Shown here piece after piece: positions 1-36,811 of a DNA stretch of 64,000 nt. Both the position numbers and the translations under genes were made by a program. Below the pieces are notes generated by a model. It did not search any database. It was given only the letters and a program-made list of their open reading frames with translations, and was not told where the DNA came from. The DNA lies in contig JAKPMO010000004.1 of the NCBI GenBank assembly GCA_029548865.1, forward strand, positions 96,001 through 160,000. The letters run 5' to 3'. The stretch's first letter is position 1, and each line of letters begins with the position of its first letter. This DNA comes from Caldisericota bacterium (lineage in GTDB: Bacteria > Caldisericota > Caldisericia > JAAYUI01).

Positions 1-1392
1 CAGATAAATGCCAAAATGGCAACATCCGCCCCATGCGTTATTTCACCAGGCGGGTTGATAGTCACAAAAGACAAATCAAAGGACGTAAAGCTTACATTTA
101 AGGGCCTTGGTACTGATGCAAATTTCAAAGTGAGATTTGAAGTTCTGAATAAGCTTGATGATTATGTCAAGTTTACTGGTCAGGAGACTGTAAGTGTGCC
201 TTCAAAAAATGAAGCAACATACACTTTCTCAATTGATTATTCTGCGACTGAAATCCCATGGAATGTAGAGTGCGTTATCTGGTTTGAAAGCGACAAGATA
301 AAGTTGCATGTTCCGGTCATTTGCTGGAAAGGCTATGCCACAAGTGAGAAAAGGAATATTACCTCACTCAAAGTTACAGGAAACAACATCAATTATGATG
401 GGAAGGGCGACAAGGTAACCATCGAATTTGGTGTTGCGATGGGCGATAAATTTACATACAAGCCTCTTTTTTACAAAATGCAGAGCGATGAGGAAGCTCC
501 GCAGCCAAGAGAAACGATGATTTCTGGTGTCCAGTTTGATCTTATTGATGGTAATGGTGATACATGGGTGACAATAAAACGCTTTGAGAACACCCAGTAT
601 GGTTACTACAAATTTGACTGGTTTGGTGAAGATGCCGAGGGCATGCATTCAATACCTGATGGTTCTTATGGTCTCAAGATTGTTATTAGCGAAACAGTTC
701 TGGAGCCAGGAAGCGCCAAATTGAAAACCAAGAATTCATCTCAGATTGCAAAAGACACTATAAGAATAAATGGAAGCAAAGTGCAAAGTCCACCAAGGTT
801 CTTTATGGTTGCACAACCACATACGCCCTCTGCCAACCAGAAAGTTCTTGTGGATTGTTATGTGACATTTGCAAAAGATATTTCATCGCTTAATTTCAAT
901 GTAGCCTACAATCCGGATGAGGTTAAAATACTCCAGGTTTGGCCTGGGAGATTCCTCCAATCAGACGGCTCGCCGGTAGAATCCGATGTTTATCTCGATG
1001 ATGTCAATGGTAAAATCAAAGTTATTTCCAAGAGAGCAAATCAAACTGGCATTAGCGGACATGGTATCATTCTGAAGTTCTTGGCCATCTTCCCCAATCC
1101 GTCTGCGCCAACCATTAAATTTGATGATCTTAGTCCATATGATCCAAGAGGAAGGATGATCCCACACATGGGTTTCCCACTGGAACTTGAAGTTACCGAT
1201 GTCGAACCACTACTTGGCGACCTCAATTTCGATGGAATTGTAGATATGGAAGACTACTTTATTTTCGCGCAATCGTATGGTGCAAAGAGGGATGAATTAC
1301 ACTACAACCCTCTTGCTGATTTCAACTCGGATGGTATTATTGACTTCGAAGATTTGAAAGTATTGCTTAATAATCTTGGCAAAAGTGAGTGA
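1..1392 (+). CDS. C-terminal part (5' truncated by the window) of a probable S8 peptidase paralog with FlgD-Ig-like, cohesin and dockerin domains
   Basis: The frame is open to base 1 (QINAKMATSAP...). The sequence is collinear with the post-catalytic half of 4550..7735. It shows a FlgD-Ig-like motif (YKFDWFGEDAEG..IPDGSY), a cohesin (NFNVAYNPDEVKILQVWPGRFL...GISGHG) and a dockerin with two Ca loops (GDLNFDGIVDMED, ADFNSDGIIDFED). The catalytic domain lies outside the window. Confidence 0.75.
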   Translation, partial: QINAKMATSAPCVISPGGLIVTKDKSKDVKLTFKGLGTDANFKVRFEVLNKLDDYVKFTGQETVSVPSKNEATYTFSIDYSATEIPWNVECVIWFESDKIKLHVPVICWKGYATSEKRNITSLKVTGNNINYDGKGDKVTIEFGVAMGDKFTYKPLFYKMQSDEEAPQPRETMISGVQFDLIDGNGDTWVTIKRFENTQYGYYKFDWFGEDAEGMHSIPDGSYGLKIVISETVLEPGSAKLKTKNSSQIAKDTIRINGSKVQSPPRFFMVAQPHTPSANQKVLVDCYVTFAKDISSLNFNVAYNPDEVKILQVWPGRFLQSDGSPVESDVYLDDVNGKIKVISKRANQTGISGHGIILKFLAIFPNPSAPTIKFDDLSPYDPRGRMIPHMGFPLELEVTDVEPLLGDLNFDGIVDMEDYFIFAQSYGAKRDELHYNPLADFNSDGIIDFEDLKVLLNNLGKSE

Positions 1393-1408
1393 AGAAAGGG
1401 CAGTCTAA

Positions 1409-4400
1409 ATGAAAAAAGCGCTTGCATTGATTGTCGCAGTTGCCGTGCTGGCAGGTTTGCCAGTCATCATGGCTCGAAACACCGTCGCTTCCGATGTGAA
1501 AATTACAGTGGAGCAGGTTTATGGTGTAATGCCTGATTCTTACATCGGCTCATTCAACCTTTCAGGCCCGAATACAGTGGAGTCTGACTATATGGTTGGC
1601 TACTATTATCCGATGTGTGCGATGAAGGTAACAAGTGATGGCAATTTGATAGTTGCCGATACCGCCTATGGAAGAGTCCATGTGCTTGGCTCGGATCTCT
1701 CCCACAAGAGTGTTTTTGGATCCCTTGGTTTTGGCGATGGCAAGTTTCAATATCCAGTTGATTGTGCCGAAGATGGGGATGGCAACCTTTATTTTGTAGA
1801 CATGTATAATTGCCAGGTTTCAAAATGGGACAAATATGGCAAATTTATTGGCGCTTTTGGCTCTGAAGGCCAGGAGAATGGGCAGTTTATTGCACCAGGT
1901 GGAATAGCAGTTGATAGTGATGGAAATATTTATGTTTCCGATGGCAACACAGCCAGAATACAAAAGTTTGATTCTTCCTTCAAATTTAAAAACTTAATGA
2001 ATGTTGGAAGTGAGACCGTTGCTCTTGATTCTCCTGGACCGATCAGAATTGGACCAAATGATGAAGTTTTTGTTGCAGAAATGAAAAGTGGGACCATTTA
2101 TCAATTCAAACCATCCGGTGATTTTGTAAAGGCAGTTGTCAAATCAACCGACGAAAAAAATCCCATTTTTAAAAAGCTGGGTGCTTTCGAAGTTGGTTCA
2201 GACGGGACATTCTATCTCCTTGATCGTGCAGATGGTTCAAACGCAATAAAGATTTTTGACAAGGATGGGAAAGAAAAGTCAAGGTTCCAGAGCGTTGCTT
2301 CCAATGAGGAGTATCTTGATGGCATGGCAGTTGGAGCAGACAGTGTTTATGTCCATGTTTATGGTTCAATCAATCCAGGGTCTGGCGTCTCGATTGACAA
2401 CCCGTTTATTGTGCCAAGCTCACAAAGACTCATCAAATTTGACAAATCAGGTTCCAAAAAGGGTGAGGAATCATACAACCCGATGCAAGAGGGCAGGGGT
2501 GGAAACATCACATCATGCGCTGTGACTTCAGATGGGACACTCTATGCCGTTTCAAACATCAATGTTGATCAGGGTGGTAAATACGCTAGTAATATCCTTG
2601 TTTGGGACGCAAAAGGAAACTATCAGAACTCGATTTCAACTGATGATCTTAATCTTTCAAATCAAGCTCTCTTCTCTGACGTAACAGTTGATTCATATGA
2701 TAATGTTTATGTTTCTGTCAATGAAGGTTTTAGGGGCGAGGTTCCAGGTTACATCATAAAGATTGCAACTGGCTCCGAAATGCTTTCAACGGTAACCCCA
2801 AATTCAAGGACCGCTATTTCTTACTCATCCGAGCAAATCGGAAAAGGTGATCTTGGAACTCCAGCAGGTCTGTGTGTTGATCGTATGGACAACCTTTATG
2901 TTGCCGACAGGGCAAGACAGTCAGTGATCATATTTACAAGCAAGGGGAGAAAAAGGGATGAACTTGGTGTCAATACTTCACCCAGCAATGTTTCGGTTGA
3001 CCCATTCCGCAATATGGCCTGTGCAACCGATGGACAGATAGTTGTCATTGACAAAAAAGGCAGAGACATCGCCAGTATGGGTGGTCAGGGAAGAAAACCA
3101 GGACAACTCTATTATCCCCATGGAGTTCTTTTCGCAAATAATGGAGCAGTAATTGTTTCTGATGGCGAAAATGGAAGAATCCAGATTTTTGAACGCAAAG
3201 AGGGTTCTGATTTCACGGCCACATATACTTCTCCTCGTATGTTCTATGTTCCGCAGGGAATGTGCTGGGGCAAGGACCAGAAGGTTTATCTCACAGATAA
3301 CTTCCATAATGTAATTTACAGGCTCAACATCAATGGTTACACACCACCAGGAATTGGCGAAACTGGTCCAGAACCGCCGCTCCCACCACAACCACCGGCC
3401 CCACAAAATATCCCATCAGATGGTGAGATTTACTTCCAGCCATCAGATGTGAAAATTCCATCGGGTGGATCATCAGACATCAATATCAGCATCAGGTATG
3501 CGTCAAATGTCTATGGTGTTGGTATGACACTCAAATATGACCCGCAATATCTCCAGCTTGACAAGTGCGAACAGGGGAATTTCCTTTCCTCTGACGGAAA
3601 CAAAAACCTCTTTATCTACAAAGATGAGCCAAAGGGTACAGTAAAAATTGGTGGCCCGACAAGAACATCAGCGGTTGCTGGAATGAATGGTGAAGGCATA
3701 CTTATAAAGTTCCGTTTCGTTGGTGTCAAGGAGGGCGACACAAAGCTCGAAGTATCAGAGGTATTAGTTAAAGATCCAGATCTTAACAATATTCAAGTTT
3801 CAGTCACAAATGCCAAAGTTAAAGTGTTGCCAAAAGACAGCACGCCACCACCAGTAAATGTCAATATTCCAAAATGTTCTTGGGATGCTTCATTTACCGG
3901 TTCCGGAACCACTGAAAAAGATGCAAAACTTGTACTCAAGACTGTTGATGGAAGCCAGGACATAAAAGTTGGTGCAGATGGAAGCTTCAAGTTTACAGTG
4001 AATTTGAAAAAAGGTGCCAACAACTTCACAATTACAGCAACTGATCCAGCGGGTAATTCAAAAGACTATACCTTTACAATCAATCAGGCAACAAAAAATG
4101 TTGTTGTCATGTGGGTTGGAAAGCTCGTTTACATGGTTAATGGTTCCAATATGAACCTTAATGCTGCTCCGCAGCTTATCGGTGGTTCAACATATGTTCC
4201 AATGCGTGACCTTGGAAATGCTCTCAGCTGTGTTGTTGATTGGGACGCTAAAGAAAAGAAAGCAACATATACATACACAGATCCATGCTCTGGTACACAA
4301 ACAGTCCTTGAAGCCTGGATTGACAAAACCATGGGAAGACTCAATGGTTCGCCACTAGATTTTGGTAAGGCACCAAAGATAATTGGTGGAAGAACGCTCG

Positions 4401-4492
4401 TGCCGTTACGTGCTATCTCGTCTGGACTTGGTGCTGATGTAAAGTATGAGGCTTCAAACAAGCAGATAACAATCACTCATCCGAAGCCCTGA
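1409..4492 (+). CDS. Secreted NHL-repeat beta-propeller protein with Pro-rich linker, cohesin, Ig-like and C-terminal CAO-N (stalk) domains
   Basis: Signal peptide; NHL repeats (FQYPVDCAEDGDGNLYFVD, FIAPGGIAVDSDGNIYVSD, LYYPHGV); PEPPLPPQPPAPQ linker; cohesin (YGVGMTLKYDPQYLQLDKCEQGNFL); CAO-N motifs APQLIGGSTYVPMR and APKIIGGRTLVPLRAIS. Confidence 0.85.
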   Translation: MKKALALIVAVAVLAGLPVIMARNTVASDVKITVEQVYGVMPDSYIGSFNLSGPNTVESDYMVGYYYPMCAMKVTSDGNLIVADTAYGRVHVLGSDLSHKSVFGSLGFGDGKFQYPVDCAEDGDGNLYFVDMYNCQVSKWDKYGKFIGAFGSEGQENGQFIAPGGIAVDSDGNIYVSDGNTARIQKFDSSFKFKNLMNVGSETVALDSPGPIRIGPNDEVFVAEMKSGTIYQFKPSGDFVKAVVKSTDEKNPIFKKLGAFEVGSDGTFYLLDRADGSNAIKIFDKDGKEKSRFQSVASNEEYLDGMAVGADSVYVHVYGSINPGSGVSIDNPFIVPSSQRLIKFDKSGSKKGEESYNPMQEGRGGNITSCAVTSDGTLYAVSNINVDQGGKYASNILVWDAKGNYQNSISTDDLNLSNQALFSDVTVDSYDNVYVSVNEGFRGEVPGYIIKIATGSEMLSTVTPNSRTAISYSSEQIGKGDLGTPAGLCVDRMDNLYVADRARQSVIIFTSKGRKRDELGVNTSPSNVSVDPFRNMACATDGQIVVIDKKGRDIASMGGQGRKPGQLYYPHGVLFANNGAVIVSDGENGRIQIFERKEGSDFTATYTSPRMFYVPQGMCWGKDQKVYLTDNFHNVIYRLNINGYTPPGIGETGPEPPLPPQPPAPQNIPSDGEIYFQPSDVKIPSGGSSDINISIRYASNVYGVGMTLKYDPQYLQLDKCEQGNFLSSDGNKNLFIYKDEPKGTVKIGGPTRTSAVAGMNGEGILIKFRFVGVKEGDTKLEVSEVLVKDPDLNNIQVSVTNAKVKVLPKDSTPPPVNVNIPKCSWDASFTGSGTTEKDAKLVLKTVDGSQDIKVGADGSFKFTVNLKKGANNFTITATDPAGNSKDYTFTINQATKNVVVMWVGKLVYMVNGSNMNLNAAPQLIGGSTYVPMRDLGNALSCVVDWDAKEKKATYTYTDPCSGTQTVLEAWIDKTMGRLNGSPLDFGKAPKIIGGRTLVPLRAISSGLGADVKYEASNKQITITHPKP

Positions 4493-4502
4493 TAAACTTT
4501 TG

Positions 4503-4532
4503 AAAGGGAGGCCTTTTGGCCTCCCTTTTTTT
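4503..4532 (+). terminator. Intrinsic terminator
   Basis: AAAGGGAGGCC-TTTT-GGCCTCCCTTT hairpin with a T tract, about 10 bp after the 4492 stop. Confidence 0.85.
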
Positions 4533-4549
4533 GTAGACATGGAGGGGAT

Positions 4550-7500
4550 ATGAAAATACTCAAAAACATTGTTGTAGGTCTTATCATTTTTTCCATGTTT
4601 CTTTTTTGTGGTCCCTCTTTTGCGGCCCAGGATTATGGGTATGCAAAAATAGATAAAGCTCTAATTGGAAAAACAGGCACCGTTAATGTCATAATAATCA
4701 CTGGTGACAAAACTGTTGTCGATTATGTTGGTAATCTTTCTTACTCCAACAAATTTTTCCAGGGAACAATTGAGTCTTGTATAAACAATTCCGTCGAGAG
4801 CGTTTATCTGCGGTGCAAGTCCATTTCACCTGATCTCACAAAAAGATGGGTTTTTAATACGGTGATTAATGGTTTTTCTTGTGAAGTCGATGCAAGTAAA
4901 TTGATTGATCTTGCCAAACTGCCTTCGGTGAAAAAAATTGTTGATGCAACATTCAGATATGAAATGCAAATCAACAAGCACCTTCCATATCTTGGTGTAA
5001 CAAAACTGAGGCAGATAGGAACACCTGATGGTAAAAAAGCGACAGGCGCTGGCATAAGAGTCGGTGTTATTGACAGTGGAATAAACTATAAGCACCTTGC
5101 TCTTGGTGATGGCTGGGGCAAAAGGGTCAAATTTGGGTATGATTTTGCCGATAAAGATTCTGACCCGCTTGATTTTATGGGGCATGGTTCACACTGTGCT
5201 GGAATAATTGGTGCCAATGGCAAGTATCTTGATACTCCAATAACTGGTGTCGCACCGGAAGCTACTTTTGGTGCATACAAAGTTTTTACTGTCGACGAGG
5301 GTGGAGCAAGACCGGACAATGTGGCCGCGGCGCTTGAGATGGCTGCAAAAGATAAGTGTGCTGTTGCCAATATGTCGCTTGGAAGAGCGTTATATTATGG
5401 TGGTGAGAATGAAGTTGAAGATCAGGCAATAAAAAACGCCACAAAAGCCGGAATGCTTGTTGTAGTTGCAGCAGGTAATGACGGTTATCGCTCGGATAGG
5501 TTGCCATTGCCAATAGGTGTTCCAGCAGTAACAGAGGAGGCACTTTGTGTTGCGGCAACTGATGAGCGTGGCAAATGTCTCATAGAGGTAATGACAAAAA
5601 CTGGTGAAACAAAGAGGATGTTGGCAAACAATCATATATGGGGCCTTCCATCCATAAACCCGGATGATTCCCTTTACGAGGTTGTTGATGGTGGCACTGA
5701 TCCCAACAAAATTCCTGATTGTGCTGGCAAGGTTTTATTGATTCAATATAAAGACAATATCAGAAGCTGGCACAGATTGGAAACTCAAAATTTCATTCGA
5801 AAACTAAAAACACTCAAATGCAAAGCTTTTATTTTCTGGTCCGATGGTTTTGATGGAACACCATTTACCCTCTCCTATTTTGAAAGCTTTGAAGATGCAA
5901 TGACTTTTCAGGTGCCCATCTATACCTTGAACAGAAGGGATGCAAAGATACTTCTGGATGCGGTAAAAGAAGGGCAGAAAATACATTTCAAGAGAATATC
6001 ATACCCTGGAGATTTTTCCTCGACTGGTCCGTACCTTGGACCAAGGGGTCTGAAATTCAAACCAGAAGTTTCTGCGCCTGGAATGTGGATTTTTTCAACG
6101 GTTTATGATGAGAAGAATCCGAAGGATGCTTGGGACTCATATTCTGGAACATCAATGGCGGCACCATTCGTAACTGGCATGTCAGCACTTGTAAAGAGTT
6201 ATCACCCTGATTGGCTACCATGGCAAATAAAAGCCTCACTTATGAATACAGCCAAGTTCCAGATCAATCCACTCAATGGTGACCCCTATCCATTGGTAAT
6301 CCAGGGGTCAGGGCTTGCCAATGTTTATGATGCTTGTACAACGCCAGTAATAACGGACCCTCCAGCATTTACCTTCCATGGTGGTAACTACAAGGATGGA
6401 GTAAAGATAAATCTTATCAATGTTGATTCGAAGAGGGCTACAGTAAAACTCACTTCCAAAGTGACCTTTGTCGGGGATGTTGAAGGTGTTGATATATCAA
6501 TTACTCAATCAGATGAAGTGGTCTCTCCACCGCCACAATCCTCACCAAGGGATGCAACTGCTTCGCTTGATCTCAAAATAAATCTGGACAAGCAAAAAGT
6601 TCCAAAAAATAGAGTTGTTGAGGGCTCAATTGAAATCACCATCGATAGTTCAACCCAGATCCATGTTCCGTTCATGGCTTTGTTTGGCGAGATAGAGATT
6701 TACAACTCTCTTAAATCGTTTTCAAATCTTCTCGTGCAGAATGACAAGATTGATGTTGCCCAGGGTGAAAAACCTGGAACAGTCAAGTTTCATGTTGGAG
6801 TTGGCTCAAAATCGTTCTTCTGGGGCAACCAATATGACAATTTTGCCTATATGACAAGGATATCTGTTCTAGATAAGATCTTGGATAGGTGGAGAGATAT
6901 TTATGAAGGCAATTATCTCATTCCAGGTGATTATGAATTCGAATGGGACGGAAAAGATATTGATGGAGATTTGTTCTTGCCAAATGGGCCAAATGGCATA
7001 GGAAGTTTTATGTACTATGAAGCCATAGTTGGTAGTACGCAAAATAAACTTGTTGAGAGTTCAGTGCCAAGGGATGCTCAAGCTTGGGTGGAGGTGATTG
7101 GTTCAGACAAATTACCGCTTCCTGAGCTGAATCTTAGTGTTAACCCAGAGTTTGGTGCATTGAATAAAACACTCACAGTGAAGATGTCTCTTGCAAGGTC
7201 GAGCCAAAATAAGGTCATAAGGTTCTCTCTGCTCTATGATGCAAAAATGGTAACTTACACTGGCAATTATAGAAGAGGTTCTATGACTGAAGATTCAACA
7301 AGTATGATGATTTCAATCGAGGATAACCAGGACGGTAAAATGACCGTGGAGATCTCGCCATCTTATGCTGGTTTAACATTGGATGGAACAGGCGATCTCA
7401 TGGAGATTGATTTTACTTGCAATAGGGTTGGTGGAACGGAGTTCGATACTTCTTTTGTAGAAATACTTGACAATGAAATTAAAAATATTAGATTCGTAAG

Positions 7501-7735
7501 ACCGTTGCCAGTTGAGGTGCTTATAACCGATCGGTATCTTTTGATCGGTGATTTCAACGTAGACTGGGTGGTAGATGACAAAGATCTTGTTATTTTCGGT
7601 CAGCAGTTTGGTAAGAAAGAGGGAGATCCCGACTACAACAAGCTGTGCGACATTAACAGGGACAAGGTCATCGACGAAAAGGATTTTATCTACTTCTCTA
7701 AACATTTTGGAGAAAGAAGTGAAAAACCAAAATAA
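4550..7735 (+). CDS. Secreted S8 (subtilisin/Vpr-like) serine protease with I9 propeptide, PA-like insert, FlgD-Ig-like, cohesin and dockerin domains
   Basis: Catalytic triad motifs VGVIDSGI, HGSHCAG and SGTSMAAP; oxyanion AAGN; C-terminal cohesin (FSLLYDAKMVTY) and dockerin (GDFNVDWVVDDKD...CDINRDKVIDEKD); GGAGG RBS. Confidence 0.9.
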   Translation: MKILKNIVVGLIIFSMFLFCGPSFAAQDYGYAKIDKALIGKTGTVNVIIITGDKTVVDYVGNLSYSNKFFQGTIESCINNSVESVYLRCKSISPDLTKRWVFNTVINGFSCEVDASKLIDLAKLPSVKKIVDATFRYEMQINKHLPYLGVTKLRQIGTPDGKKATGAGIRVGVIDSGINYKHLALGDGWGKRVKFGYDFADKDSDPLDFMGHGSHCAGIIGANGKYLDTPITGVAPEATFGAYKVFTVDEGGARPDNVAAALEMAAKDKCAVANMSLGRALYYGGENEVEDQAIKNATKAGMLVVVAAGNDGYRSDRLPLPIGVPAVTEEALCVAATDERGKCLIEVMTKTGETKRMLANNHIWGLPSINPDDSLYEVVDGGTDPNKIPDCAGKVLLIQYKDNIRSWHRLETQNFIRKLKTLKCKAFIFWSDGFDGTPFTLSYFESFEDAMTFQVPIYTLNRRDAKILLDAVKEGQKIHFKRISYPGDFSSTGPYLGPRGLKFKPEVSAPGMWIFSTVYDEKNPKDAWDSYSGTSMAAPFVTGMSALVKSYHPDWLPWQIKASLMNTAKFQINPLNGDPYPLVIQGSGLANVYDACTTPVITDPPAFTFHGGNYKDGVKINLINVDSKRATVKLTSKVTFVGDVEGVDISITQSDEVVSPPPQSSPRDATASLDLKINLDKQKVPKNRVVEGSIEITIDSSTQIHVPFMALFGEIEIYNSLKSFSNLLVQNDKIDVAQGEKPGTVKFHVGVGSKSFFWGNQYDNFAYMTRISVLDKILDRWRDIYEGNYLIPGDYEFEWDGKDIDGDLFLPNGPNGIGSFMYYEAIVGSTQNKLVESSVPRDAQAWVEVIGSDKLPLPELNLSVNPEFGALNKTLTVKMSLARSSQNKVIRFSLLYDAKMVTYTGNYRRGSMTEDSTSMMISIEDNQDGKMTVEISPSYAGLTLDGTGDLMEIDFTCNRVGGTEFDTSFVEILDNEIKNIRFVRPLPVEVLITDRYLLIGDFNVDWVVDDKDLVIFGQQFGKKEGDPDYNKLCDINRDKVIDEKDFIYFSKHFGERSEKPK

Positions 7736-8957: not shown

Positions 8958-11726
8958 TTATGGCCGAATTTGTTTTGTGAGGATTATTGATTTTGTTGTG
9001 GCATCGTAAGTGACCTCAGCCCCGAATGCCTCAGCTATAAATCTGAATGGCACTGTTACTCTTCCGGATTTATGTGTTTCAGGAGGAGGTGATATTTTTA
9101 CACGTTTTCCGTTTACGATAGCCTCTGTTTTATTCACAACCATAGTTATTTTTATCTGACCATATTTTATCGAGATACTCTTGGTTTTCCCATCATAGTT
9201 GACCTCGGCCCCAAATGCATCTGCAATTGCCCTCAGTGGAACCATTGTTGTCCCACCTTTTATATAAGGTGGAGGATTAATTTGTACCTCAACTCCATCA
9301 ACCATCATTGTTTGACTGCCAACAGTGAGTTCCACTCTCTTTTCGGCAATGTTTATAATTATAACATCAGCCATTGTTTTGTTGCCTGATTCGTCGGTTA
9401 CTTCAATCTTGAATATATTTTTGCTTGGGGCCGGTTTTAGCGGGACAGTAATAGTAAATGTATTTGGGGCATTTTGTTTTCCATTTATTTCGATGCCACC
9501 AAAAATAGCTTTAGCGGTTACAGTTTCATTGGCACTACCCATAATTACATAGGAATCCTGATTTACTAGGTCCCCTATCTTATCGATTGTTATTTTGGGT
9601 GATGTAACATCTTTCACCATTTCAACTTTTACAGGCAGCTCTAGTTCACCCTTTGGCCATTTGACTATTACGATGCCAGTGTGTGTTTTACTTAGTGCGA
9701 GGCCATTCGTTGATATCTCAAATTCAAAAGTGGCTTCGTTGTCTGCCGGAATAATTATTTCTTCTACTGGAACTTTCAACCATGGCGTGGTGGACTTGCA
9801 GCTTATCTTATATTCCTTTTTTGCCTGGTTGATGATCTGGAAAGATTTTTTGATGTTCTCACCCTGCTTGACACCAGCCAGTTCAATTTCCTTTGGCGCA
9901 AGAAGTGGTGGTGGATTATATGTTTTTTGAGCCTGGATAGTGATTTCGCCTTCACCATAATTATATTCAAGCTCTGCTTTTTCGGTTACAAGTTGGTCCA
10001 TCTCAAGCGATTCAGGATTTGCTGTCGCTTTGATAGTTATTGTGTTTTCCGGGTCAATTTTCCCACTTGAAGGATCAAATGTAACCCACTTGCTTTTTGT
10101 AGTTATTTTGAATTTTGCTTCGTATGGTTCGGGGTTTTTAATTACGAATTCGATTGTACGCGTTGTGTCTTGTTCAACTTCGCCAAAATCCAATATTTCT
10201 GTAAATTCCAGTGGCTGTTTCATATAAACTTCAACATTTGTAGATGCAGAGAGTTTACCAATTGAGGCTGTAATAGTGCAATTCCCCTTTTCAGCTGGAA
10301 GGAAAACTCCAAATTGGTCGATTGTGCCATATTTTGGAGGATCAACTTTCCAAACCGGTTGCAAACCAATGATTTTTTTGCCATCCTGGTCAAGAACTGT
10401 TGCTTCAAATTGTATCTTTTCATTTACAAAAGCTGTTGGATTTTTTGGAGAAATATCAATTGAAGTTGGTTTTGGACCAGATTTCCCCTCGAAACAGATT
10501 ATGTTGTTGTCTGTAGTTGAAACAATGACCATGTTATCAAGCACAGCAGGTGGTGTTGGAACAGCTCCATTGGTCTCATATTTTGCAGCTATTTTGCCAG
10601 AAAGCTTGTTGATACAGTAAAGATTGTCATCATAGCACCCAATAAGAATGTATTTTCCAAAAATTGTAGGGGAACCAATTATTTTTTCTGGTAGTGTAAG
10701 GTTCCATTTTTCTTTTCCTGTTTCTATGTCAAGCCCGTACATTTTTGAGTCTACGCAACCAAAAAAAACTGAATTTGAATCTTGATCAACTGCAAAGCCA
10801 GAAAAGACATCATCTTGGGTTTTGAACTTCCAGAGAACTTTCCCTTTTTCCTGCTCGACACAAACTATTGTATTTGGTGTTGGTTTATCTTCATCATCAT
10901 TTGCAAAATAGTTTGTATTGGAACTTCTCTGATCTATTGACGCGATAATTTTATCTTTGTATGAAGAAATGTTTGCCAAACCTGTTCCACCATTGCCAAC
11001 AAATGAACTCCATATTTGGCGACCATTTGATGGGGACAGGCAATAGAGATTGTCCATTAGCACAAATAATTTATTGTTAGAAATGATTGGGGATGAATAG
11101 GAATAATAGTTTGAACTGCTTGTAATTTTATCAAGCCAGAGTTTTCCTCCTGACATGGAAAAACATGCTATTTTTCCAAGGCCAAAAGTTGTGTATATCT
11201 TGTCGTCGTAAATTGTTGGTTTCGGGGAGTAAATGATTGTTTGCATTACCTCTGAGATGTCGACATCATAGCTCCATAAGGGCATGCCGCTTTTTGTTGA
11301 AAGACATTTCATGCCCATAGCATCGCCATAAAAGATTTTCTCGCCTGAAATTGCCATTTGAGAAAACAACATTGGAAGATCCAGTTGTCTTGACCATATA
11401 ATTTTGCCATCAGTTGATCTCAGGCAATGCATCATTGTTTTTTTGAAATCGAGATCTTCTGTAATGGTGTAGATTTTTCCTTTAGCAGTCACTAGTGATT
11501 CTATACCAATAAAATCTGATTCTGGTATCTTGGATTCCCATTTTTTCTTCAGAAGTGAAACATCTTCAATGCAATGATCTTGAGCAACACCTGAATGTTC
11601 TTCATCTCCACCAAACATTGGATAAATGCAGCTGTTATTGTCATCATCATCTTCTGCGGTTATCATCGGCGGTGTGATTGAGCAAAAGACCACCAGTGAA
11701 ATCAAAATAGCGATAGTTTTTTTCAT
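8958..11726 (-). CDS. Secreted PQQ-like (BamB-type) beta-propeller protein with Ig/BACON-like domains and C-terminal CAO-N domain
   Basis: Signal peptide from MKKTIAIL (start moved to 11726, with GAGGG upstream); propeller repeats (GLDIETGKEKWN, CLSTKSGMPLWS); Ig-like domains; CAO-N motif PPYIKGGTTMVPLRAIA. Confidence 0.82.
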   Translation of the reverse strand: MKKTIAILISLVVFCSITPPMITAEDDDDNNSCIYPMFGGDEEHSGVAQDHCIEDVSLLKKKWESKIPESDFIGIESLVTAKGKIYTITEDLDFKKTMMHCLRSTDGKIIWSRQLDLPMLFSQMAISGEKIFYGDAMGMKCLSTKSGMPLWSYDVDISEVMQTIIYSPKPTIYDDKIYTTFGLGKIACFSMSGGKLWLDKITSSSNYYSYSSPIISNNKLFVLMDNLYCLSPSNGRQIWSSFVGNGGTGLANISSYKDKIIASIDQRSSNTNYFANDDEDKPTPNTIVCVEQEKGKVLWKFKTQDDVFSGFAVDQDSNSVFFGCVDSKMYGLDIETGKEKWNLTLPEKIIGSPTIFGKYILIGCYDDNLYCINKLSGKIAAKYETNGAVPTPPAVLDNMVIVSTTDNNIICFEGKSGPKPTSIDISPKNPTAFVNEKIQFEATVLDQDGKKIIGLQPVWKVDPPKYGTIDQFGVFLPAEKGNCTITASIGKLSASTNVEVYMKQPLEFTEILDFGEVEQDTTRTIEFVIKNPEPYEAKFKITTKSKWVTFDPSSGKIDPENTITIKATANPESLEMDQLVTEKAELEYNYGEGEITIQAQKTYNPPPLLAPKEIELAGVKQGENIKKSFQIINQAKKEYKISCKSTTPWLKVPVEEIIIPADNEATFEFEISTNGLALSKTHTGIVIVKWPKGELELPVKVEMVKDVTSPKITIDKIGDLVNQDSYVIMGSANETVTAKAIFGGIEINGKQNAPNTFTITVPLKPAPSKNIFKIEVTDESGNKTMADVIIINIAEKRVELTVGSQTMMVDGVEVQINPPPYIKGGTTMVPLRAIADAFGAEVNYDGKTKSISIKYGQIKITMVVNKTEAIVNGKRVKISPPPETHKSGRVTVPFRFIAEAFGAEVTYDATTKSIILTKQIRP

Positions 11727-11737
11727 TCTGCCCTCCC

Positions 11738-14700
11738 TCATGGCATTTTGTCCATGTTAAGTGTTATTGTTTTTGTTTTTGGGTCCCATTCCACCTGCGC
11801 GCCAAGCGCTTCAGCAATAAATCTAAACGGGACCATTGTCTTCCCGTTGTAGATAATTGCTGGTGGTTTTATCAATTTGGTCTCTCCATCAACGATTGCA
11901 GTCTGGGAGCCAATAAATATGATTATCTTTCTTCCATCAAGTGTTATTGTGACAGAGTTGGTATCTTTGTTAAATTCTGTTGTAGCGTCAAAAGCATCGG
12001 CGATTGCTCTTACAGGTACCATTGTTGCCCCACGAAGTATAGTTGGTGGTGGGTTTATGGCCACTGATTTCCCATTTACGGTCATAGTTGCCACTCCGAC
12101 AGTCATGACAACCTTTCTTCTTTTTATGTTTACAATAAGCACTTCTTTGACTGTTTTATTGCCTGATTTGTCAGTACTTTCAATGATTATTGTTTTTTTA
12201 GAAGGTGCTTGGACAACTTTTATTTTTGCGCTGAACTGGGTTCCAGTGAGTTTTGCCTGAATCCCATCCACAATCACAGAGCAGCCTTTTTCTGTTTCTC
12301 CGGTAATTTCTGCTTCTGTTGCGTTATATATCGTTATGGTATCGGAAATTCTGATTTGTGGAGGCGTTTTGTCTGGCAGGGCATTGACTTTTACGGGTAC
12401 CTCGACATTTCCAAGGGGCCAATCAAACATGACTAGTCCATTGTATGTTTTGTTCCCTTCAAATTCCCAAGTTTCGATAGTTATTGTAACCGACCCATCC
12501 TTGCCAGATTTGATTGCTACACTTTCAGGGCTGTATTTGATCCAGTTAGCACTGGAAGAAATGGCCATTTGAACATCGTTTTTTGTGTTGTTTGATATTA
12601 TGATCGTTCTAGACTGTATTTGCGAAACTTGGATGTCCCCAATATCAATTTCTGTTCTTGAGAATGATATTCCCTTGCCTACCACTTTCACCTTGATGTC
12701 TTTTTTGTCATCTCCCCAATCAAGATTCAGTTTTCCTGTTAACCAGGCGCCATCAGGCAGTTTATCTGGCACAGTCCTGATTTTTAGAGTGTATGTTTCA
12801 CCTTTCTGGATATGAACACTTGGCAGCGAGCATTCAAACCACTCGTCGCTCTCACTAATTCTAATATCAATTGAGGTGCAAGACTGGTTTTTTACCTTTA
12901 GCTCCAGGGTTTTTTCTACACCAGGCTCGACCGTACCAAAGTCAATTTCGTCCGAACATTCAGGTGGTATTTTCCCTACAACTTCTATGTCAAGATTTGC
13001 TTCAAGTTTTTCTGTGCGGCATATTATTTTGCATTTGCCGATACTTGTTGCTTTGAGGACACCCTTATCGCTTATTGTAACAATCCCTTCTGGTTCTGAC
13101 GCCCAGGATACTGGATAACCTCTCATCTGATTATCTTTTGCATCCAGTACTGCGCCTTCAAGCTGAACTGTTTGTTCCAGCTCTACTTTTTCTCCAATAT
13201 TCCTGATTTCAAGTTTTGTTGGAACTGCATTTTCATCGTTATTTAAACAATAAACGATTCCTTCGTCGTCGACTGCATAAAGGTCTCCATTTACAAGGAT
13301 TACACCACTTGTGATGGGCGCTTTTGTTGGAACTGTCCATACCAAGGAACCAGCGTTTTTGTCGATGCAGAATATTTTTAAAGCTGTGTTGCCAAAAAAG
13401 AGTTTGTCGCCGCTTAAAACTGGCGTTGCTGATATTATGCCCTCGGAGTTAAAAATCCATTTCCTTGTACCTTTTTTTGCATCAAGGCAGTACATGAAAC
13501 CATCACTGCACCCAAAATACACAAATTCACCGTCTGAGATGATACTTGAGTGAATTTTCCCCTCAATTTTTGAGGACCATACATTTTTCCCAGATACTAG
13601 ATCAATGCAATTAACGAATGTTTGTTCTGATGCACCTATGTTGTTAGTAGATGCAATAGAGGTAACAATAAAAATATTGCCATTACTTATTGATGGAGAA
13701 TTTGTTGGTTTTCCACTAAGGGATGATTCCCAGATTATTAATCCTGTGCTGGATTCAATGCAATATAACTTGCTGGCTGATACAGCGTACACTTTCCCTT
13801 TGTCATATGCTGGATATGCGGATACACTTTCTCCTAGTGGAGTAGACCAGATTTTTTCTCCTGTATCGGAGGCAACACTATATAGATTCCCATCGCTGGC
13901 TGTGAAGAATATCCTGCCCGGTCTACTTATGGGTTTAATATTTACTTTACTATTTTTATCTGCGTCTATTTTGAAGCTCCATCGTTCTTTTCCGGTTTCC
14001 ACACTCATCGAATATAGTTCGTAGCTGGAACCAAAGAGGATATTGCCACCTTCAATAGAGGCCGAACCCTCATTTGTTGATTCCATGGATTCATTCCAGA
14101 GTTTTTCACCGCTTGATCTTTTCAAACAGAACAATTTTCCATAGTGATTCGAATTAGCGAGTGCGACAAAAATTTTTGACTGGTCAGAAAGTAGCGAATA
14201 GTTTGATTCACCAGCTTTTAATGCTGTTATCCAGGCTTTTTTCAAGTAATTTGATGTCGGTGCACATTTGGGGTCGCAAGTGAAGCTGTGAGTGGATGTT
14301 TTGCCAAAATTCTTCCATTCACATGAATTTGGATCCTCTTCTGATCCTGACAGTGTGTATGCCATCAATTCAACGCTGGCTTCCAAAGATCCAGAACTTA
14401 TTGTGATTTTACCTTTATAAATGCCACTTTGGGCCATTTTATCAGGAATCAGGGAAACTTTGATTTTCCCATCCTGACGCCCGTTAAGCGATATCTTTGT
14501 TTTATCTATCCTTATCCAATCACCATTTGTTATGGTGACTTTGAATTCTTGTTGGGATTGTTGGTTGTTTCTGACATTAATTTCTCTTTCCAGCTTTTGG
14601 CCAGATGTGATTTCGCCAAAATCAATAATGTGCTGATTGACGATTGATTCAGTATAACAGTGCAAAGTTCCATCGGCTTCTCCAACAACTACCATATTAT

Positions 14701-15856
14701 TGGAAATTGAGAAAGAACTACCCGCGTATGAATCCAAACTAGCTTGCCATAGTGTTGCACCTGTTTCGAGATCAAGTGCGTATGCTATTCCTTTGCCAAA
14801 AGTCAGATACACAATTCCATTTGAGATAGCAGGGTCTGTTGTGCTACCAATATCAGCAAATTTTTTCCATATTATTTTCCCTGATGCGATGTCGATGCCA
14901 TATATGCTGCAATCCGATGATCCATCCTTTATGTTCTGCTGTTCTGGGTCCATTGTGCCAATGACCAACATATTTCCTGATATTCCCGGAGTGCTCGCGA
15001 TTGGATGATCAAGTTTGATCATCCAGACTTCATTTCCGGTATTTGCATCAACACAATACAACTGTCCTTTAGAATTTCCAAAATAAATCTTCGCATCTTT
15101 GTGGGCCGAGCTTGCAATAAAATCATTATCTGATTGGCCGTATGTTTTTTTCCAGACGATAGCTCCATTTTCCTGGTTTAAACAATAAATTGTTCCATCA
15201 GATGCGCCTATATATAATTTCCCATTGGAGCAGACCGGTGAAGATGAATAAATCATAGCTCCTATTTTTGTCTTCCATTTCATTGCCCCTGATGTGGCAT
15301 CAAGGCAGTAAATGAAATTGTTTTCATCAAATGTACCGAAAAAAACACTCGATCCAACCACAACTGGTGAACACATGACAGGGCATTTTGTATCAAATTT
15401 CCAGAGCTCTTTGCCATCGAGTGCATTGAAGCAATAAAATTTGCATCCACGAAACAACTCTTCAGATGGTTTATAACCTGCGAAACAGCCGGAGTAAACT
15501 TTCCCGCCATAGACAGCAGGAGCACAATAGTTTCCATAACCACTCATCCTTGCTTTCCACATTTCTTTTCCAGTTGTAAGATCGATGCAGTGCAAACTGG
15601 CATTTGGAGTGCTTCTCGCATGATCACAAAAAAATACCTTTCCATTAGATATGACAGCTGGAGAATCTATTCTTCCATTCGCAGTAAAAGTCCAAAGCTC
15701 TCTAAGTTCCGCAGAGCCTGGGCCACATGATGAATAGCCTTGTGATTCAGCTGTACCATGAAAGAAATTCCAGTCGCAATCATCAATTGCAATAGCGGTG
15801 GTCAGTGTTGTTATAAGAAAAATAGTTATTATTGCCAAAAATATCGTCCTCTTCAT
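11738..15856 (-). CDS. Secreted double PQQ-like beta-propeller protein with Ig/BACON-like domains and C-terminal CAO-N domain
   Basis: Signal peptide; two sets of [CA]LD..tG...W repeats; Ig-like domains; C-terminal PPTILRGATMVPVRAIA and GKTMVPFRFIAEALGA. Paralogous to 8958..11726. Confidence 0.85.
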   Translation of the reverse strand: MKRTIFLAIITIFLITTLTTAIAIDDCDWNFFHGTAESQGYSSCGPGSAELRELWTFTANGRIDSPAVISNGKVFFCDHARSTPNASLHCIDLTTGKEMWKARMSGYGNYCAPAVYGGKVYSGCFAGYKPSEELFRGCKFYCFNALDGKELWKFDTKCPVMCSPVVVGSSVFFGTFDENNFIYCLDATSGAMKWKTKIGAMIYSSSPVCSNGKLYIGASDGTIYCLNQENGAIVWKKTYGQSDNDFIASSAHKDAKIYFGNSKGQLYCVDANTGNEVWMIKLDHPIASTPGISGNMLVIGTMDPEQQNIKDGSSDCSIYGIDIASGKIIWKKFADIGSTTDPAISNGIVYLTFGKGIAYALDLETGATLWQASLDSYAGSSFSISNNMVVVGEADGTLHCYTESIVNQHIIDFGEITSGQKLEREINVRNNQQSQQEFKVTITNGDWIRIDKTKISLNGRQDGKIKVSLIPDKMAQSGIYKGKITISSGSLEASVELMAYTLSGSEEDPNSCEWKNFGKTSTHSFTCDPKCAPTSNYLKKAWITALKAGESNYSLLSDQSKIFVALANSNHYGKLFCLKRSSGEKLWNESMESTNEGSASIEGGNILFGSSYELYSMSVETGKERWSFKIDADKNSKVNIKPISRPGRIFFTASDGNLYSVASDTGEKIWSTPLGESVSAYPAYDKGKVYAVSASKLYCIESSTGLIIWESSLSGKPTNSPSISNGNIFIVTSIASTNNIGASEQTFVNCIDLVSGKNVWSSKIEGKIHSSIISDGEFVYFGCSDGFMYCLDAKKGTRKWIFNSEGIISATPVLSGDKLFFGNTALKIFCIDKNAGSLVWTVPTKAPITSGVILVNGDLYAVDDEGIVYCLNNDENAVPTKLEIRNIGEKVELEQTVQLEGAVLDAKDNQMRGYPVSWASEPEGIVTISDKGVLKATSIGKCKIICRTEKLEANLDIEVVGKIPPECSDEIDFGTVEPGVEKTLELKVKNQSCTSIDIRISESDEWFECSLPSVHIQKGETYTLKIRTVPDKLPDGAWLTGKLNLDWGDDKKDIKVKVVGKGISFSRTEIDIGDIQVSQIQSRTIIISNNTKNDVQMAISSSANWIKYSPESVAIKSGKDGSVTITIETWEFEGNKTYNGLVMFDWPLGNVEVPVKVNALPDKTPPQIRISDTITIYNATEAEITGETEKGCSVIVDGIQAKLTGTQFSAKIKVVQAPSKKTIIIESTDKSGNKTVKEVLIVNIKRRKVVMTVGVATMTVNGKSVAINPPPTILRGATMVPVRAIADAFDATTEFNKDTNSVTITLDGRKIIIFIGSQTAIVDGETKLIKPPAIIYNGKTMVPFRFIAEALGAQVEWDPKTKTITLNMDKMP

Positions 15857-19949: not shown

Positions 19950-19958
19950 AGTTCCTCC

Positions 19959-22043: not shown

Positions 22044-22055
22044 TGGTCCTCCAGT

Positions 22056-34642: not shown

Positions 34643-36811
34643 ATGAAAAAAACGATAAATTATATCATCTTAATTATCTTTATATTAACTATCTCACCTG
34701 TACACAAAGTCTTTTCAGAAGAGCAAAAACCTTGCTTTCTTATTATCTCAAAGCATCCGCAAGCACTTTTGGATGAGCTGGTCAAATCCAAAGAAGCGGC
34801 AGGATTTCAAGTTAAGTATATAAATATTGGTGAGATACCACATGATGATGATCTTGGGCCGAAAGATATCAGAATATTTTTGAAGAAGAATAAAGATGCC
34901 TGGAACATAAAATATCTGCTTATAGTGGGAACAGAAGATACCGTGCCCATGATGTATTGTTCTCCTGCCTCCGAGGGTGTTGTATCGAGAGACCTTGTTG
35001 ATACGCCAACAGATTTCTATTACTCGTCGATCTATGACGATTGGGACAAGGATGATGACGGAAGGGTTGGGGAGTACCCGGATGATGGGATAGCAGAACA
35101 CAAAGCCGATATTTTTGTTGGCAGGATACCGTTTGATGAACCGAAAACAATTTCCGAAATTTCCAAATCAATGGCCGAATTCGACAGCCTACCTGATTTC
35201 CAGAAAGCAAAGATGCTTTTTGGTGGTGCAATGCTTGGTTTCCAGGGTGAGGTCTGGGACGACAAGATAATGGAAAGAACAGACGGTGGGGAATACTGCG
35301 AGAAAATATATTCGGAAATTTTTAGTGGCAAGGGATTTTCCAGATACAGACTCTATGAAAAAGATGGTTTTCTTCCATCTCCATTCCAATGTGAAGAGCC
35401 GCTCAACGCAGAGACTTTCGGCTACCAGATACCAAACAGGTATGGGCTTGTCTTGTGGACTGCCCATGGCTCGCCTGAACATATAGTTAGGACAGTCTGG
35501 AACTCGGGTAGTGCCCAAAAATCCTCTCCTTCCAAGGCCGATCTTTCACAGCCAAGACTCCTGAACTCAACCCAGATGACAGGTGCCAAGACCAGGTGGG
35601 GGATTGTTGTTTCGGCATCTTGCTCAACATCGAACCCTTCCGCAGGAACGGGTCTGGGTGCTTCGGTAATCAAGGCTGGTGCTTCAGCTTATGTTGGTTC
35701 AACCAGGGTTGCCTGGTCACCATCATACTGGAGGAAACTCGAAGATGGCGGAATGGACACTATTTTGTACCTCTTTTGCAGGTACCTTTCCGTTCCAGGC
35801 ACATCCGTGGGGCAGGCAATCGCACAGGCGAGGGTTGAGTTTGCCAAACAATATTTCTTTGGTGACATCGAGGACCCAATCGAGTCGGCCCAGATGAATA
35901 TTTACAACTTCAATCTCTATGGCGATCCATCGGTTTGCCTGATAAAGGGTGATATTGGAGGAAGCGTCGAAATACTTGAACCAAGCATCAGCGCCTCTCC
36001 TGGAGAAGTGGCAAAATGGGAGGCAAATATCTCCGGCAGCGATTTGACTGGCAATATCTTTCAGGTGATCCCGGACAAGCAGGACATGAGCTGGGCCGTC
36101 CCGGAAGTCGTGATTGCTGGAAACAAGCTTGTTTTGACAGCAGAAATTCCATCATCAGTTCCTAACGGCAAGAGATTTTGGATACTCCACCAGAAGAGGG
36201 GCGACCTGTCGTCGCAAATACCGATAGTTCTCAATATTGTGCCAAAACCGGAGGCCAGCTTTGGATTTTCATCAGGAGATGGCGCGATAATCCCGTTTTC
36301 AAGGGTCAAGTCCAGCCTTAATTTGACACAGAAAACAAAATATCTTGAGGTCACACTGAAATATGATCCTGACAAAATCAAGTTTGTTTCCATAGGTCAG
36401 CCATCAAAAAAATCAGATGTTTTCTCGTTTTTTGATAACCATTTTGGTCTTGCATACATCAGGATTTCAGGAGCTTCCGAGGTACTGCCGCTGATAAGCT
36501 TCAGGGTGATGAAATTTGTAGGAAAAACATCAATCGATGTATCAAAAATTGTTGCAATGACAGACAGACCGGAGGCTTTAGCCATCCAGTCCAAATCGTT
36601 TGAAATAGCAATTGGGGAGAAAGAACTTTGGATCTCGAGAGCCGATTTTGATAGATCTGGTAAAGTGGATTCTTTTGACCTAGCGCTTCTTCTGTCGCGA
36701 ATCGGGTGCACAAAACAGGACCCAAAATATGATCCAGTTTATGATCTGGATGATAACGGCCTGATAGATTTTATTGATTACAGCCTTGCTTTCAAAAGAA
36801 TCAGTGGTTGA
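34643..36811 (+). CDS. Secreted C25 (gingipain family) cysteine peptidase with a cohesin-like domain and C-terminal dockerin
   Basis: KYLLIVG, PTDFYYS and DIFVGRIP motifs; catalytic His (TAHGS) and Cys (SASCST); NLYGDPS; cohesin-like LEVTLKYDPDKIKFV; dockerin ADFDRSGKVDSFD...YDLDDNGLIDFID. Confidence 0.88.
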   Translation: MKKTINYIILIIFILTISPVHKVFSEEQKPCFLIISKHPQALLDELVKSKEAAGFQVKYINIGEIPHDDDLGPKDIRIFLKKNKDAWNIKYLLIVGTEDTVPMMYCSPASEGVVSRDLVDTPTDFYYSSIYDDWDKDDDGRVGEYPDDGIAEHKADIFVGRIPFDEPKTISEISKSMAEFDSLPDFQKAKMLFGGAMLGFQGEVWDDKIMERTDGGEYCEKIYSEIFSGKGFSRYRLYEKDGFLPSPFQCEEPLNAETFGYQIPNRYGLVLWTAHGSPEHIVRTVWNSGSAQKSSPSKADLSQPRLLNSTQMTGAKTRWGIVVSASCSTSNPSAGTGLGASVIKAGASAYVGSTRVAWSPSYWRKLEDGGMDTILYLFCRYLSVPGTSVGQAIAQARVEFAKQYFFGDIEDPIESAQMNIYNFNLYGDPSVCLIKGDIGGSVEILEPSISASPGEVAKWEANISGSDLTGNIFQVIPDKQDMSWAVPEVVIAGNKLVLTAEIPSSVPNGKRFWILHQKRGDLSSQIPIVLNIVPKPEASFGFSSGDGAIIPFSRVKSSLNLTQKTKYLEVTLKYDPDKIKFVSIGQPSKKSDVFSFFDNHFGLAYIRISGASEVLPLISFRVMKFVGKTSIDVSKIVAMTDRPEALAIQSKSFEIAIGEKELWISRADFDRSGKVDSFDLALLLSRIGCTKQDPKYDPVYDLDDNGLIDFIDYSLAFKRISG

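Follow-up and report, generated by a model that had tools for sequence, protein, structure and literature searches.

A candidate cohesin–dockerin system for one-to-one surface tethering of peptidases in Caldisericia

Introduction

Among described systems, the closest in build to the one reported here are the cell-surface anchors OlpC and ScaG, which are described as holding single dockerin proteins (PMC3413522, PMC4582956, PMC6780208). OlpC of Clostridium (Acetivibrio) thermocellum and ScaG of A. cellulolyticus, C. clariflavum and C. alkalicellulosi are described as combining one cohesin with a PF07833 domain, as do the anchors of Caldisericia, and secondary wall polymers are the reported ligands of the OlpC domain matching PF07833 (PMC4582956, citing Pinheiro et al.). 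The OlpC cohesin (4DH2) is, furthermore, among the top fold matches of the two Caldisericia cohesins that were modelled. There are two differences: OlpC and ScaG are presented as accessories of complete cellulosomes that carry CAZymes, whereas in the Caldisericia genome studied here eight proteins of this kind are the only free sockets found; and most of these eight anchors, unlike OlpC and ScaG as described, carry extra propeller or enzyme domains, with PF07833 occurring on about 85 proteins of the genome.

The peptidase side has counterparts as well. ScaO and ScaP of Acetivibrio are described as peptidases with a cohesin immediately followed by a dockerin on one chain, including an S8 protease of A. 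mesophilus in which this unit is C-terminal (PMC11557425, PMC6780208); they are reported as minor cellulosome members, whereas in Caldisericia this build makes up the system's core, present in every family examined and with a conserved neighbouring anchor gene. Genome studies have repeatedly put forward peptidase-bearing cohesin–dockerin systems (PMC6461901, PMC8542988). The planctosome of freshwater Planctomycetes (Andrei et al. 2019, PMC6461901) is presented as a hypothetical peptidase display without cellulases, as in Caldisericia, and its described parts are a one-cohesin anchor, a cohesin-plus-dockerin adaptor and dockerin-bearing peptidases; it belongs, however, to another phylum with another envelope, and has a lamin-tail anchor and M12B and M14 cargo. 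The Caldisericia system, with its peptidase cargo and no cellulases, is planctosome-like in this sense, a likeness in working rather than a shown ancestry. Candidatus Stygibacter of the Cloacimonadota (Williams et al. 2021, PMC8542988) is reported to have S8 and C25 peptidases with dockerins, like Caldisericia. It is also credited with a scaffoldin of 3,755 aa that bears several cohesins as well as CBMs, and its cargo includes GH18 and GH57 enzymes; no counterpart to these was found in the Caldisericia host.

Archaeal cohesin–dockerin pairs have also been reported to bind (PMC9012536), and the non-cellulosomal cohesin 2XDH of Archaeoglobus fulgidus matches the Caldisericia anchor cohesin best in both sequence and fold, at about 20% identity. 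Caldisericia mix this compact, helix-free type of cohesin with a dockerin that matches 2Y3N chain B of Bacteroides cellulosolvens best and may be nearest to type II. The first-pass annotation of the DNA described here had noted that non-cellulosomal examples exist but are poorly characterised; they do exist, and the planctosome, Ca. Stygibacter, OlpC/ScaG and ScaO amount to more precedent than this implied. Every element of the system has a precedent: cohesin–PF07833 anchors, peptidase cohesin–dockerin units, and proposed peptidase displays. No report of such a system for Caldisericia was found among the literature matches listed, which came from the main texts of openly accessible papers; supplementary tables of surveys that catalogue dockerins across genomes could include Caldisericia.

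The gene cluster and its modules

The window, by which we mean the whole stretch of 64,000 nucleotides that was analysed (G000:C16:96001-160000), belongs to an anaerobic bacterium of the class Caldisericia with a genome (G000) of 1.8 Mb that is 93% complete. Its first genes form a cluster in the order S8a–S8b–NHL–S8c, in which S8a lies upstream of the window and S8b starts at G000:C16:94291, 1,710 bases before it (Table 1). The open reading frames of the first-pass annotation are borne out in their coordinates. Its two S8-type proteins ending in cohesin and dockerin are real in the case of S8c and of the full-length S8b, although the S8 domain is absent from 1..1392 itself, and the middle gene does encode an NHL propeller, a cohesin and a CAO-N tail. 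This NHL protein is, by analogy, likely a wall anchor; its propeller region matches generic NHL families only, and its gene follows S8b after a gap of 16 bases. A hydrophobic N-terminal stretch of the signal-peptide type is present in 7/7 proteins checked with a simple hydropathy test. Relatives that match most of the S8 C-terminal region are labelled Caldisericia or Caldisericales; outside those labels there are two weaker matches, one of them from Poribacteria. The closest proteins bear the Caldisericia and Caldisericales names too.

Table 1. Features of the gene cluster and of the C25 gene; positions are those of the window unless a contig is named
Feature	Position	Strand	Remarks
S8a, S8-PA-cohesin-dockerin, 1,024 aa	C16:91155-94229		directly upstream of S8b
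S8b, C-terminal 463 aa (residues 571-1033 of 1,033)	1..1392	+	secreted S8-PA protease; Ig-like middle, cohesin, dockerin
S8b cohesin-fold domain, immediately before dockerin	790..1197	+	without anchor-type face residues; Z 16.9
S8b dockerin, two Ca-binding loops	1192..1389	+	partner in complex prediction
NHL-cohesin-CAO-N protein, 1,027 aa, secreted	1409..4492	+	NHL propeller region, Pro-rich linker, cohesin, Ig, CAO-N tail
Anchor-type cohesin of NHL protein	3410..3841	+	predicted contacts Y35, G36, G38, L67, T84-S87 (domain numbering)
CAO-N tail (copper amine oxidase N-terminal-like) of NHL protein	4055..4489	+	PF07833 E 8e-24
Terminator-like hairpin and T run, 3' of NHL gene	4502..4533	+	-23.3 kcal/mol, z -5.2
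S8c, secreted S8 protease, 1,061 aa	4550..7735	+	D175, H212, N310, S535; outside conserved core
S8c cohesin	7118-7531	+	class profile E 4e-16
S8c dockerin	7532-7723	+	C-terminal end of S8c
C25 peptidase, 722 aa, secreted	34643..36811	+	H275, C327
C25 weakly cohesin-like domain	36236-36631	+	before dockerin
C25 dockerin	36620-36808	+	class dockerin profile

The Asp-His-Ser triad and the oxyanion Asn are complete in S8a, in S8c and in the S8 protein at C19:102935. S8b has the triad motifs and Asp289 in place of the oxyanion Asn, and its orthologues in the host's own family (f1) have Asp or Glu there in 8/8 cases, the triad being kept where the patterns read it; judged from these residues, the substitution suggests that S8b is a specialised or weakened enzyme.

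Except for the supposed cohesin of the C25 protein, the cohesins and dockerins that had been proposed are genuine. Pfam scores for single proteins of the window are low, at 19.5–19.9 bits against a cut-off of 22.9 for the dockerins. A class profile built from 99 Caldisericia dockerins finds all three window dockerins (E 9e-23, 4e-21 and 3e-15), and matches among solved dockerins 2Y3N_B of B. cellulosolvens best (E 4e-20), with 2B59_B third, a type I dockerin between the two, and calmodulins at about 1e-5. As a control, 4,629 reversed ORFs gave a single dockerin score under 0.05 (the best being 0.039) and no cohesin score. Two Ca-binding loop–helix repeats are present, and two helices are seen in the model; the dockerin assignment is based on sequence and secondary structure, the fold search having taken in the cohesin part only. 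The domain preceding the S8 dockerin has the cohesin fold and is not an X module. The C25 peptidase, which had been credited with the same tail as the S8 proteins, does have the dockerin, but the class-wide cohesin profile misses the domain before it: HHalign aligns that domain weakly with cohesins (probability 19 and 33%), and the domain-plus-dockerin piece, which scores 0.95 to cohesin/dockerin clusters, includes the dockerin.

Cargo and sockets in the host genome

Thirteen proteins of the host genome carry a dockerin, two of them with weak scores (E 2e-4). Nine are peptidases: four of S8 type, four M6-like metallopeptidases (HExxH; TIGR03296 at 94–126 bits in the three scanned, one of them above cut-off) and the C25. 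The four non-peptidases are a propeller protein of 1,709 aa and three esterases, which have an alpha/beta fold and a GxSAG motif, match BD-FAE and, going by sequence, could act on carbohydrate esters. A glycoside hydrolase domain is found on 0/13, which extends to the whole genome what had been noticed for the window, and the census bears out the expectation of mainly peptidase cargo both here (9/13) and in five relatives (24/32, counting one partial dockerin match on an aminopeptidase-like protein). Three further S8 proteases of the host are without a dockerin.

The sockets are equally simple. Cohesins are found on thirteen proteins, never more than one per protein: five together with a dockerin and eight, of the OlpC/ScaG-type build, together with a CAO-N tail. 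Two of these eight (C18:8715 and C19:64389) consist of cohesin, spacers and CAO-N alone. No tandem-cohesin scaffoldin is present among the 13 in this 93% complete genome, and the sole multi-cohesin exception in all fetched loci is a fused S8a–S8b frame of 2,092 aa in one genome. No protein bears both a dockerin and a CAO-N tail, either among the 84 CAO-N proteins of the host or among the 113 dockerin proteins of the fetched loci. The CAO-N tail itself is found on 84 host proteins by the class profile, or 85 with one weak S8; among the 85, most of which were scanned at E 1e-12, there are three peptidase domains (C25, M28 and S8) and two amidases, and for many no cargo was recognised. The surface proteins of the host freely shuffle folds of the BACON and Big kinds and others like them. 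No match to BamA was found in the host genome, the control search being positive in 7/14 genomes, which is in line with a single-membrane cell.

In a large library the anchor-cohesin profile matches 30,460 proteins at E 0.001, the best being multi-cohesin proteins. The CAO-N tail is absent in all 18 matches scanned, and ten matches that were looked up include one cluster named Desantisbacteria and none from Caldisericia.

Distribution across the class and recurring gene pairs

Dockerins occur in 41/41 Caldisericia genomes searched, in five families (f1–f5), and the anchor-cohesin profile finds matches in 77/84 genomes of the class and in 0/9 of another class of the phylum. In five relatives, each from a different family, a complete census gives 32 dockerin matches, on the peptidases counted above, three esterases, four propeller proteins and one protein without assigned cargo; 28/32 fall into classes other than glycoside hydrolases, as judged by cargo profiles or NCBIfam and not by glycoside hydrolase profiles. 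From 30 further relatives chosen loci were fetched, a sample biased to S8 and propeller genes.

Two arrangements that put a dockerin gene beside an anchor gene recur. Pair 1, an S8-cohesin-dockerin gene followed by an NHL-cohesin-CAO-N gene, is adjacent in 24/36 genomes: 8/8 in f1, 8/8 in f2 (two cut by contig ends), 7/7 in f4 (one cut), 1/6 in f5 and 0/7 in f3 (five readable), where the pair is split. Pair 2, a cohesin-CAO-N gene followed by a propeller-cohesin-dockerin gene, accompanies 19/19 propeller genes (f1, f3 and f5). In f2 each of the 8/8 genomes has one dockerin and two cohesins, which are pair 1 itself. None of the seven further f1 genomes fetched shows S8c behind the NHL gene.

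Cohesin faces and the predicted complex

The NHL cohesin is modelled at pLDDT 94.4, and its top Foldseek match is the Archaeoglobus cohesin (E 4e-14, TM 0.79), the best 50 rows listed all being cohesins or cohesin complexes. The S8b cohesin–dockerin piece is modelled at pLDDT 94.9; its cohesin superposes on its fold match with an rmsd of 2.4 over 137 residues, and the best 20 rows of a wide fold search are all cohesins, with Z from 16.9 to 11.6. Both models show the nine-stranded cohesin beta-sandwich, while S8c is assigned by profile. Type II cohesins carry a crowning helix and beta-flaps. The 144-residue model of the NHL cohesin has no helix, and type II cohesins rank below its archaeal and type I matches.

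In the complex predicted for the NHL cohesin and the S8b dockerin, helix 1 of the dockerin packs against the flat face formed by the cohesin strands, contacting residues 35–38, 65–69, 81–88 and 119–125. The score is 0.61 against 0.18 for the best of three controls; the mark that it passes is reached by 116/157 solved and 2/215 mismatched pairs, counts that hold roughly for alignments made in this analysis. At least 97% of contacts are shared between runs, and the partner pLDDT is at least 84. The prediction covers a single pair, with the NHL cohesin as receptor. Cohesin and dockerin are a textbook pair, and the pass may for this reason reflect mere likeness to solved complexes. Taken together, we consider it probable that dockerin proteins dock on the anchor cohesins borne by CAO-N proteins.

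Anchor-type and protease-borne cohesins appear to differ on this face. We compared 61 anchor, 68 S8-borne and 19 propeller-borne cohesins, a set in which kin are not independent. At two face positions (36 and 82), which were picked after inspection of the same data, both residues are Gly or Ala in 57/61 anchors, covering every family, but in only 7/68 S8-borne cohesins, all in f2, and 1/19 propeller-borne ones; a first alignment, in which Ser was also allowed, gave 58/61, 8/68 and 6/19. The f2 S8-borne cohesins keep the face in 7/8 cases, against 0/60 for those of f1, f3, f4 and f5. Furthermore, the contact columns are better conserved in the 61 anchors than in the 68 S8-borne cohesins, the entropy gap being 0.96 bits where random columns give 0.38 (p 5e-5 by permutation of columns, neither columns nor kin being independent), although S8-borne cohesins are more variable overall, with 3.29 and 2.87 bits where the anchors have 2.33 and 2.57. 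The recognition positions of the S8 dockerins are variable, and clear specificity classes were not found among them. In a quick tree of 138 columns with many open forks, the anchors are not one group, and the f2 S8-borne cohesins group with the NHL anchor cohesins (support 97).

The f1 protease-borne cohesin, which lacks the face residues that anchors keep, thus looks like a support for the dockerin; f2 may differ. That the cohesin-dockerin proteases are adaptors, in chains growing from a CAO-N anchor without a scaffoldin, would suit the clear cohesins of intact fold on 5/13 dockerin proteins, the fused S8a–S8b frame, the kept face in f2 and the recognised class of dockerin-plus-one-cohesin adaptors described elsewhere (PMC11557425), but the 0/60 of the other four families stands against it, and we consider it quite unlikely; a degenerate cohesin face could nevertheless define a second specificity class. 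A related view, that the S8 and NHL pair is an ancestral, class-wide two-subunit surface protease in which the propeller captures or gates substrate, also has f2 proteases stacked head-to-tail from one anchor, free of a scaffold, since their cohesins keep the binding face; we judge this unlikely too.

Also quite unlikely is a reading in which no binding between proteins takes place, the cohesins being spacers and the dockerin a Ca-stabilised tail or a module packed on its own chain. It would agree with the shuffling of surface folds, the weak single-protein Pfam scores and a pre-dockerin domain that is a cohesin in S8 proteins but of another kind in the M6-like proteins and the esterases. It fits poorly, however, with the recurrence of plug-beside-socket gene order in two separate pairs, the position of the cohesin at the N-terminal tip of the cohesin-only anchors, the face-specific conservation and the passing complex prediction.

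The cellulosome-like multi-protease assembly originally proposed is not supported by these comparisons: all 13 cohesin proteins of the host are single-cohesin proteins, and in f1 the face residues are present in 0/30 protease-borne against 17/18 anchor cohesins. This system is not a cellulosome, and would work like the single-cohesin anchoring arm of one. Because tandem cohesins are missing and protease-borne cohesins are without the anchor face, one-to-one tethering on several separate anchors is the arrangement that we propose.

Function and significance

The reading that we lean towards, with some reserve, is that hydrolases are tethered one-to-one to the cell surface for protein breakdown and nutrition, and not gathered in one large complex. 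The S8, M6-like and C25 peptidases and the esterases would be exported, likely by Sec; the dockerin would fold on calcium and bind, in a predicted 1:1 complex, the single cohesin of a separately encoded anchor; and the anchor cohesin would be held on a stalk by the CAO-N tail on the cell wall, by analogy to OlpC. Many such units on eight kinds of anchor would make up a mixed hydrolase coat, in which some anchors bring a propeller or a second enzyme beside the protease and the 13 dockerins would cross-use the eight anchors. The cohesin before the dockerin would have a structural role, comparable to that of the X module in type II dockerins. Peptide transporters would take up the products. Peptide scavenging, the purpose suggested at the outset, is plausible.

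The same 1:1 docking could instead serve the envelope, with the proteases maturing, trimming or shedding CAO-N surface proteins or defending the surface, which we hold to be rather unlikely. In its favour are the sheer mass of CAO-N proteins, 84–85 with about 76,000 residues in a genome of 1.8 Mb, the minimal f2 system of one S8 and one NHL partner, the SpoIID/LytB wall-enzyme domain on the f5 pair-2 anchor, and the oxyanion substitution of S8b. Feeding is better matched by a plug common to three unrelated peptidase classes and esterases, by S8 paralogues numbering up to eight in one genome, by the three oligopeptide-binding proteins of the host, and by the naming of Caldisericota among amino-acid degraders in digesters (PMC7382037).

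The system is small and class-wide, and its f2 version comes down to a pair of neighbouring genes that encode one plug and two sockets. This minimal core, together with the split between anchor-type and protease-borne cohesins, makes two questions tractable with a handful of domains of 60–150 residues: whether proteases are displayed by non-cellulosomal pairs, and whether a dockerin-adjacent cohesin serves as an adaptor or only as a spacer. If our reading is true, a common digester and sludge lineage has a defined route of protein breakdown, and Caldisericia might supply new cohesin–dockerin pairs for engineering.

Expression

Eight runs on record as RNA contain 46–97% of the words of window positions 1–7735, and RNA contigs from four runs of four studies cover the cluster. 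The S8b–NHL junction is bridged by contigs in three of these four runs. Pair 2 is also covered, its junction being bridged in three. Such contigs neither rank expression nor prove a single transcript, DNA in the libraries being possible and gaps uninformative. A promoter scan gave 32 sites against 32.2 by chance, and the same scan missed the hairpin 3' of the NHL gene; its three best sites stand before S8a and S8b. At the 3' end of the NHL gene, contigs of three studies stop within six bases of the stop codon, by the hairpin.

Active site of S8b

In all eight f1 genomes (f1 being the family of class Caldisericia to which the source genome, G000, belongs), the S8 protease encoded directly before the NHL gene, S8b, has two changes at its active site: the oxyanion asparagine is replaced by aspartate or glutamate, and the proline after the catalytic serine motif is absent. 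The orthologue set comprises G000 and loci L093, L152, L154, L156, L159, L162, and L164. The S8b enzyme may be pH-shifted or weakened.

At L156:3483-9758 (genome G005), one 2,092-aa open frame spans both S8b and the preceding protease S8a, with the signal peptide of the second protease retained internally; the joined frame reflects either a lost stop codon or an assembly error. The best three sigma-70-like sites of a promoter scan (11–12 of 12) precede S8a and S8b (L001:2906-3128 and 6164-6193), in a scan whose total of such sites was no different from chance expectation.

Features of the protease cluster, its surroundings, and related anchors
Feature	Location	Strand	Context
S8b	G000:C16:94291-97392 (includes window 1..1392)		S8 gene immediately 5′ of NHL gene
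Two propeller-Ig-CAO-N proteins	window 8958-15856	(-)	adjoin cluster, opposite strand
2,708-aa secreted protein, CAO-N tail	window 26360-34486	(-)	immediately upstream of rpoB
Second C25 peptidase	G000:C29:32698-35382 (L006)		C-terminus cohesin + CAO-N, without dockerin
f5 anchor, ~1,000 aa	L116:2787-5810; also L183, L185, L190		5′ of propeller-cohesin-dockerin gene

Anchors and CAO-N tails

Because the second C25 peptidase of G000 ends in cohesin and CAO-N, not dockerin, both tails are used by one enzyme class. In the single anchor scanned from family f5, a SpoIID/LytB domain lies N-terminal to the cohesin. P0034, a large-library match to the anchor-cohesin profile, combines a TIR domain and several cohesins in one protein.

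Across the whole G000 genome, the CAO-N tail (PF07833) is found on about 85 proteins, totaling about 76,000 residues, which include a Ser/Thr kinase, thioredoxin-like proteins, and amidases; in several, longer than 2,000 aa, no cargo domain was recognized. The first 2,300 residues of the 2,708-aa protein in the window gave zero Pfam matches, and neither propeller-Ig-CAO-N protein carries a cohesin. RpoB and rpoC genes are neighbors as a rule; here (window 15996-26255, minus strand) an elongation factor G gene separates them.
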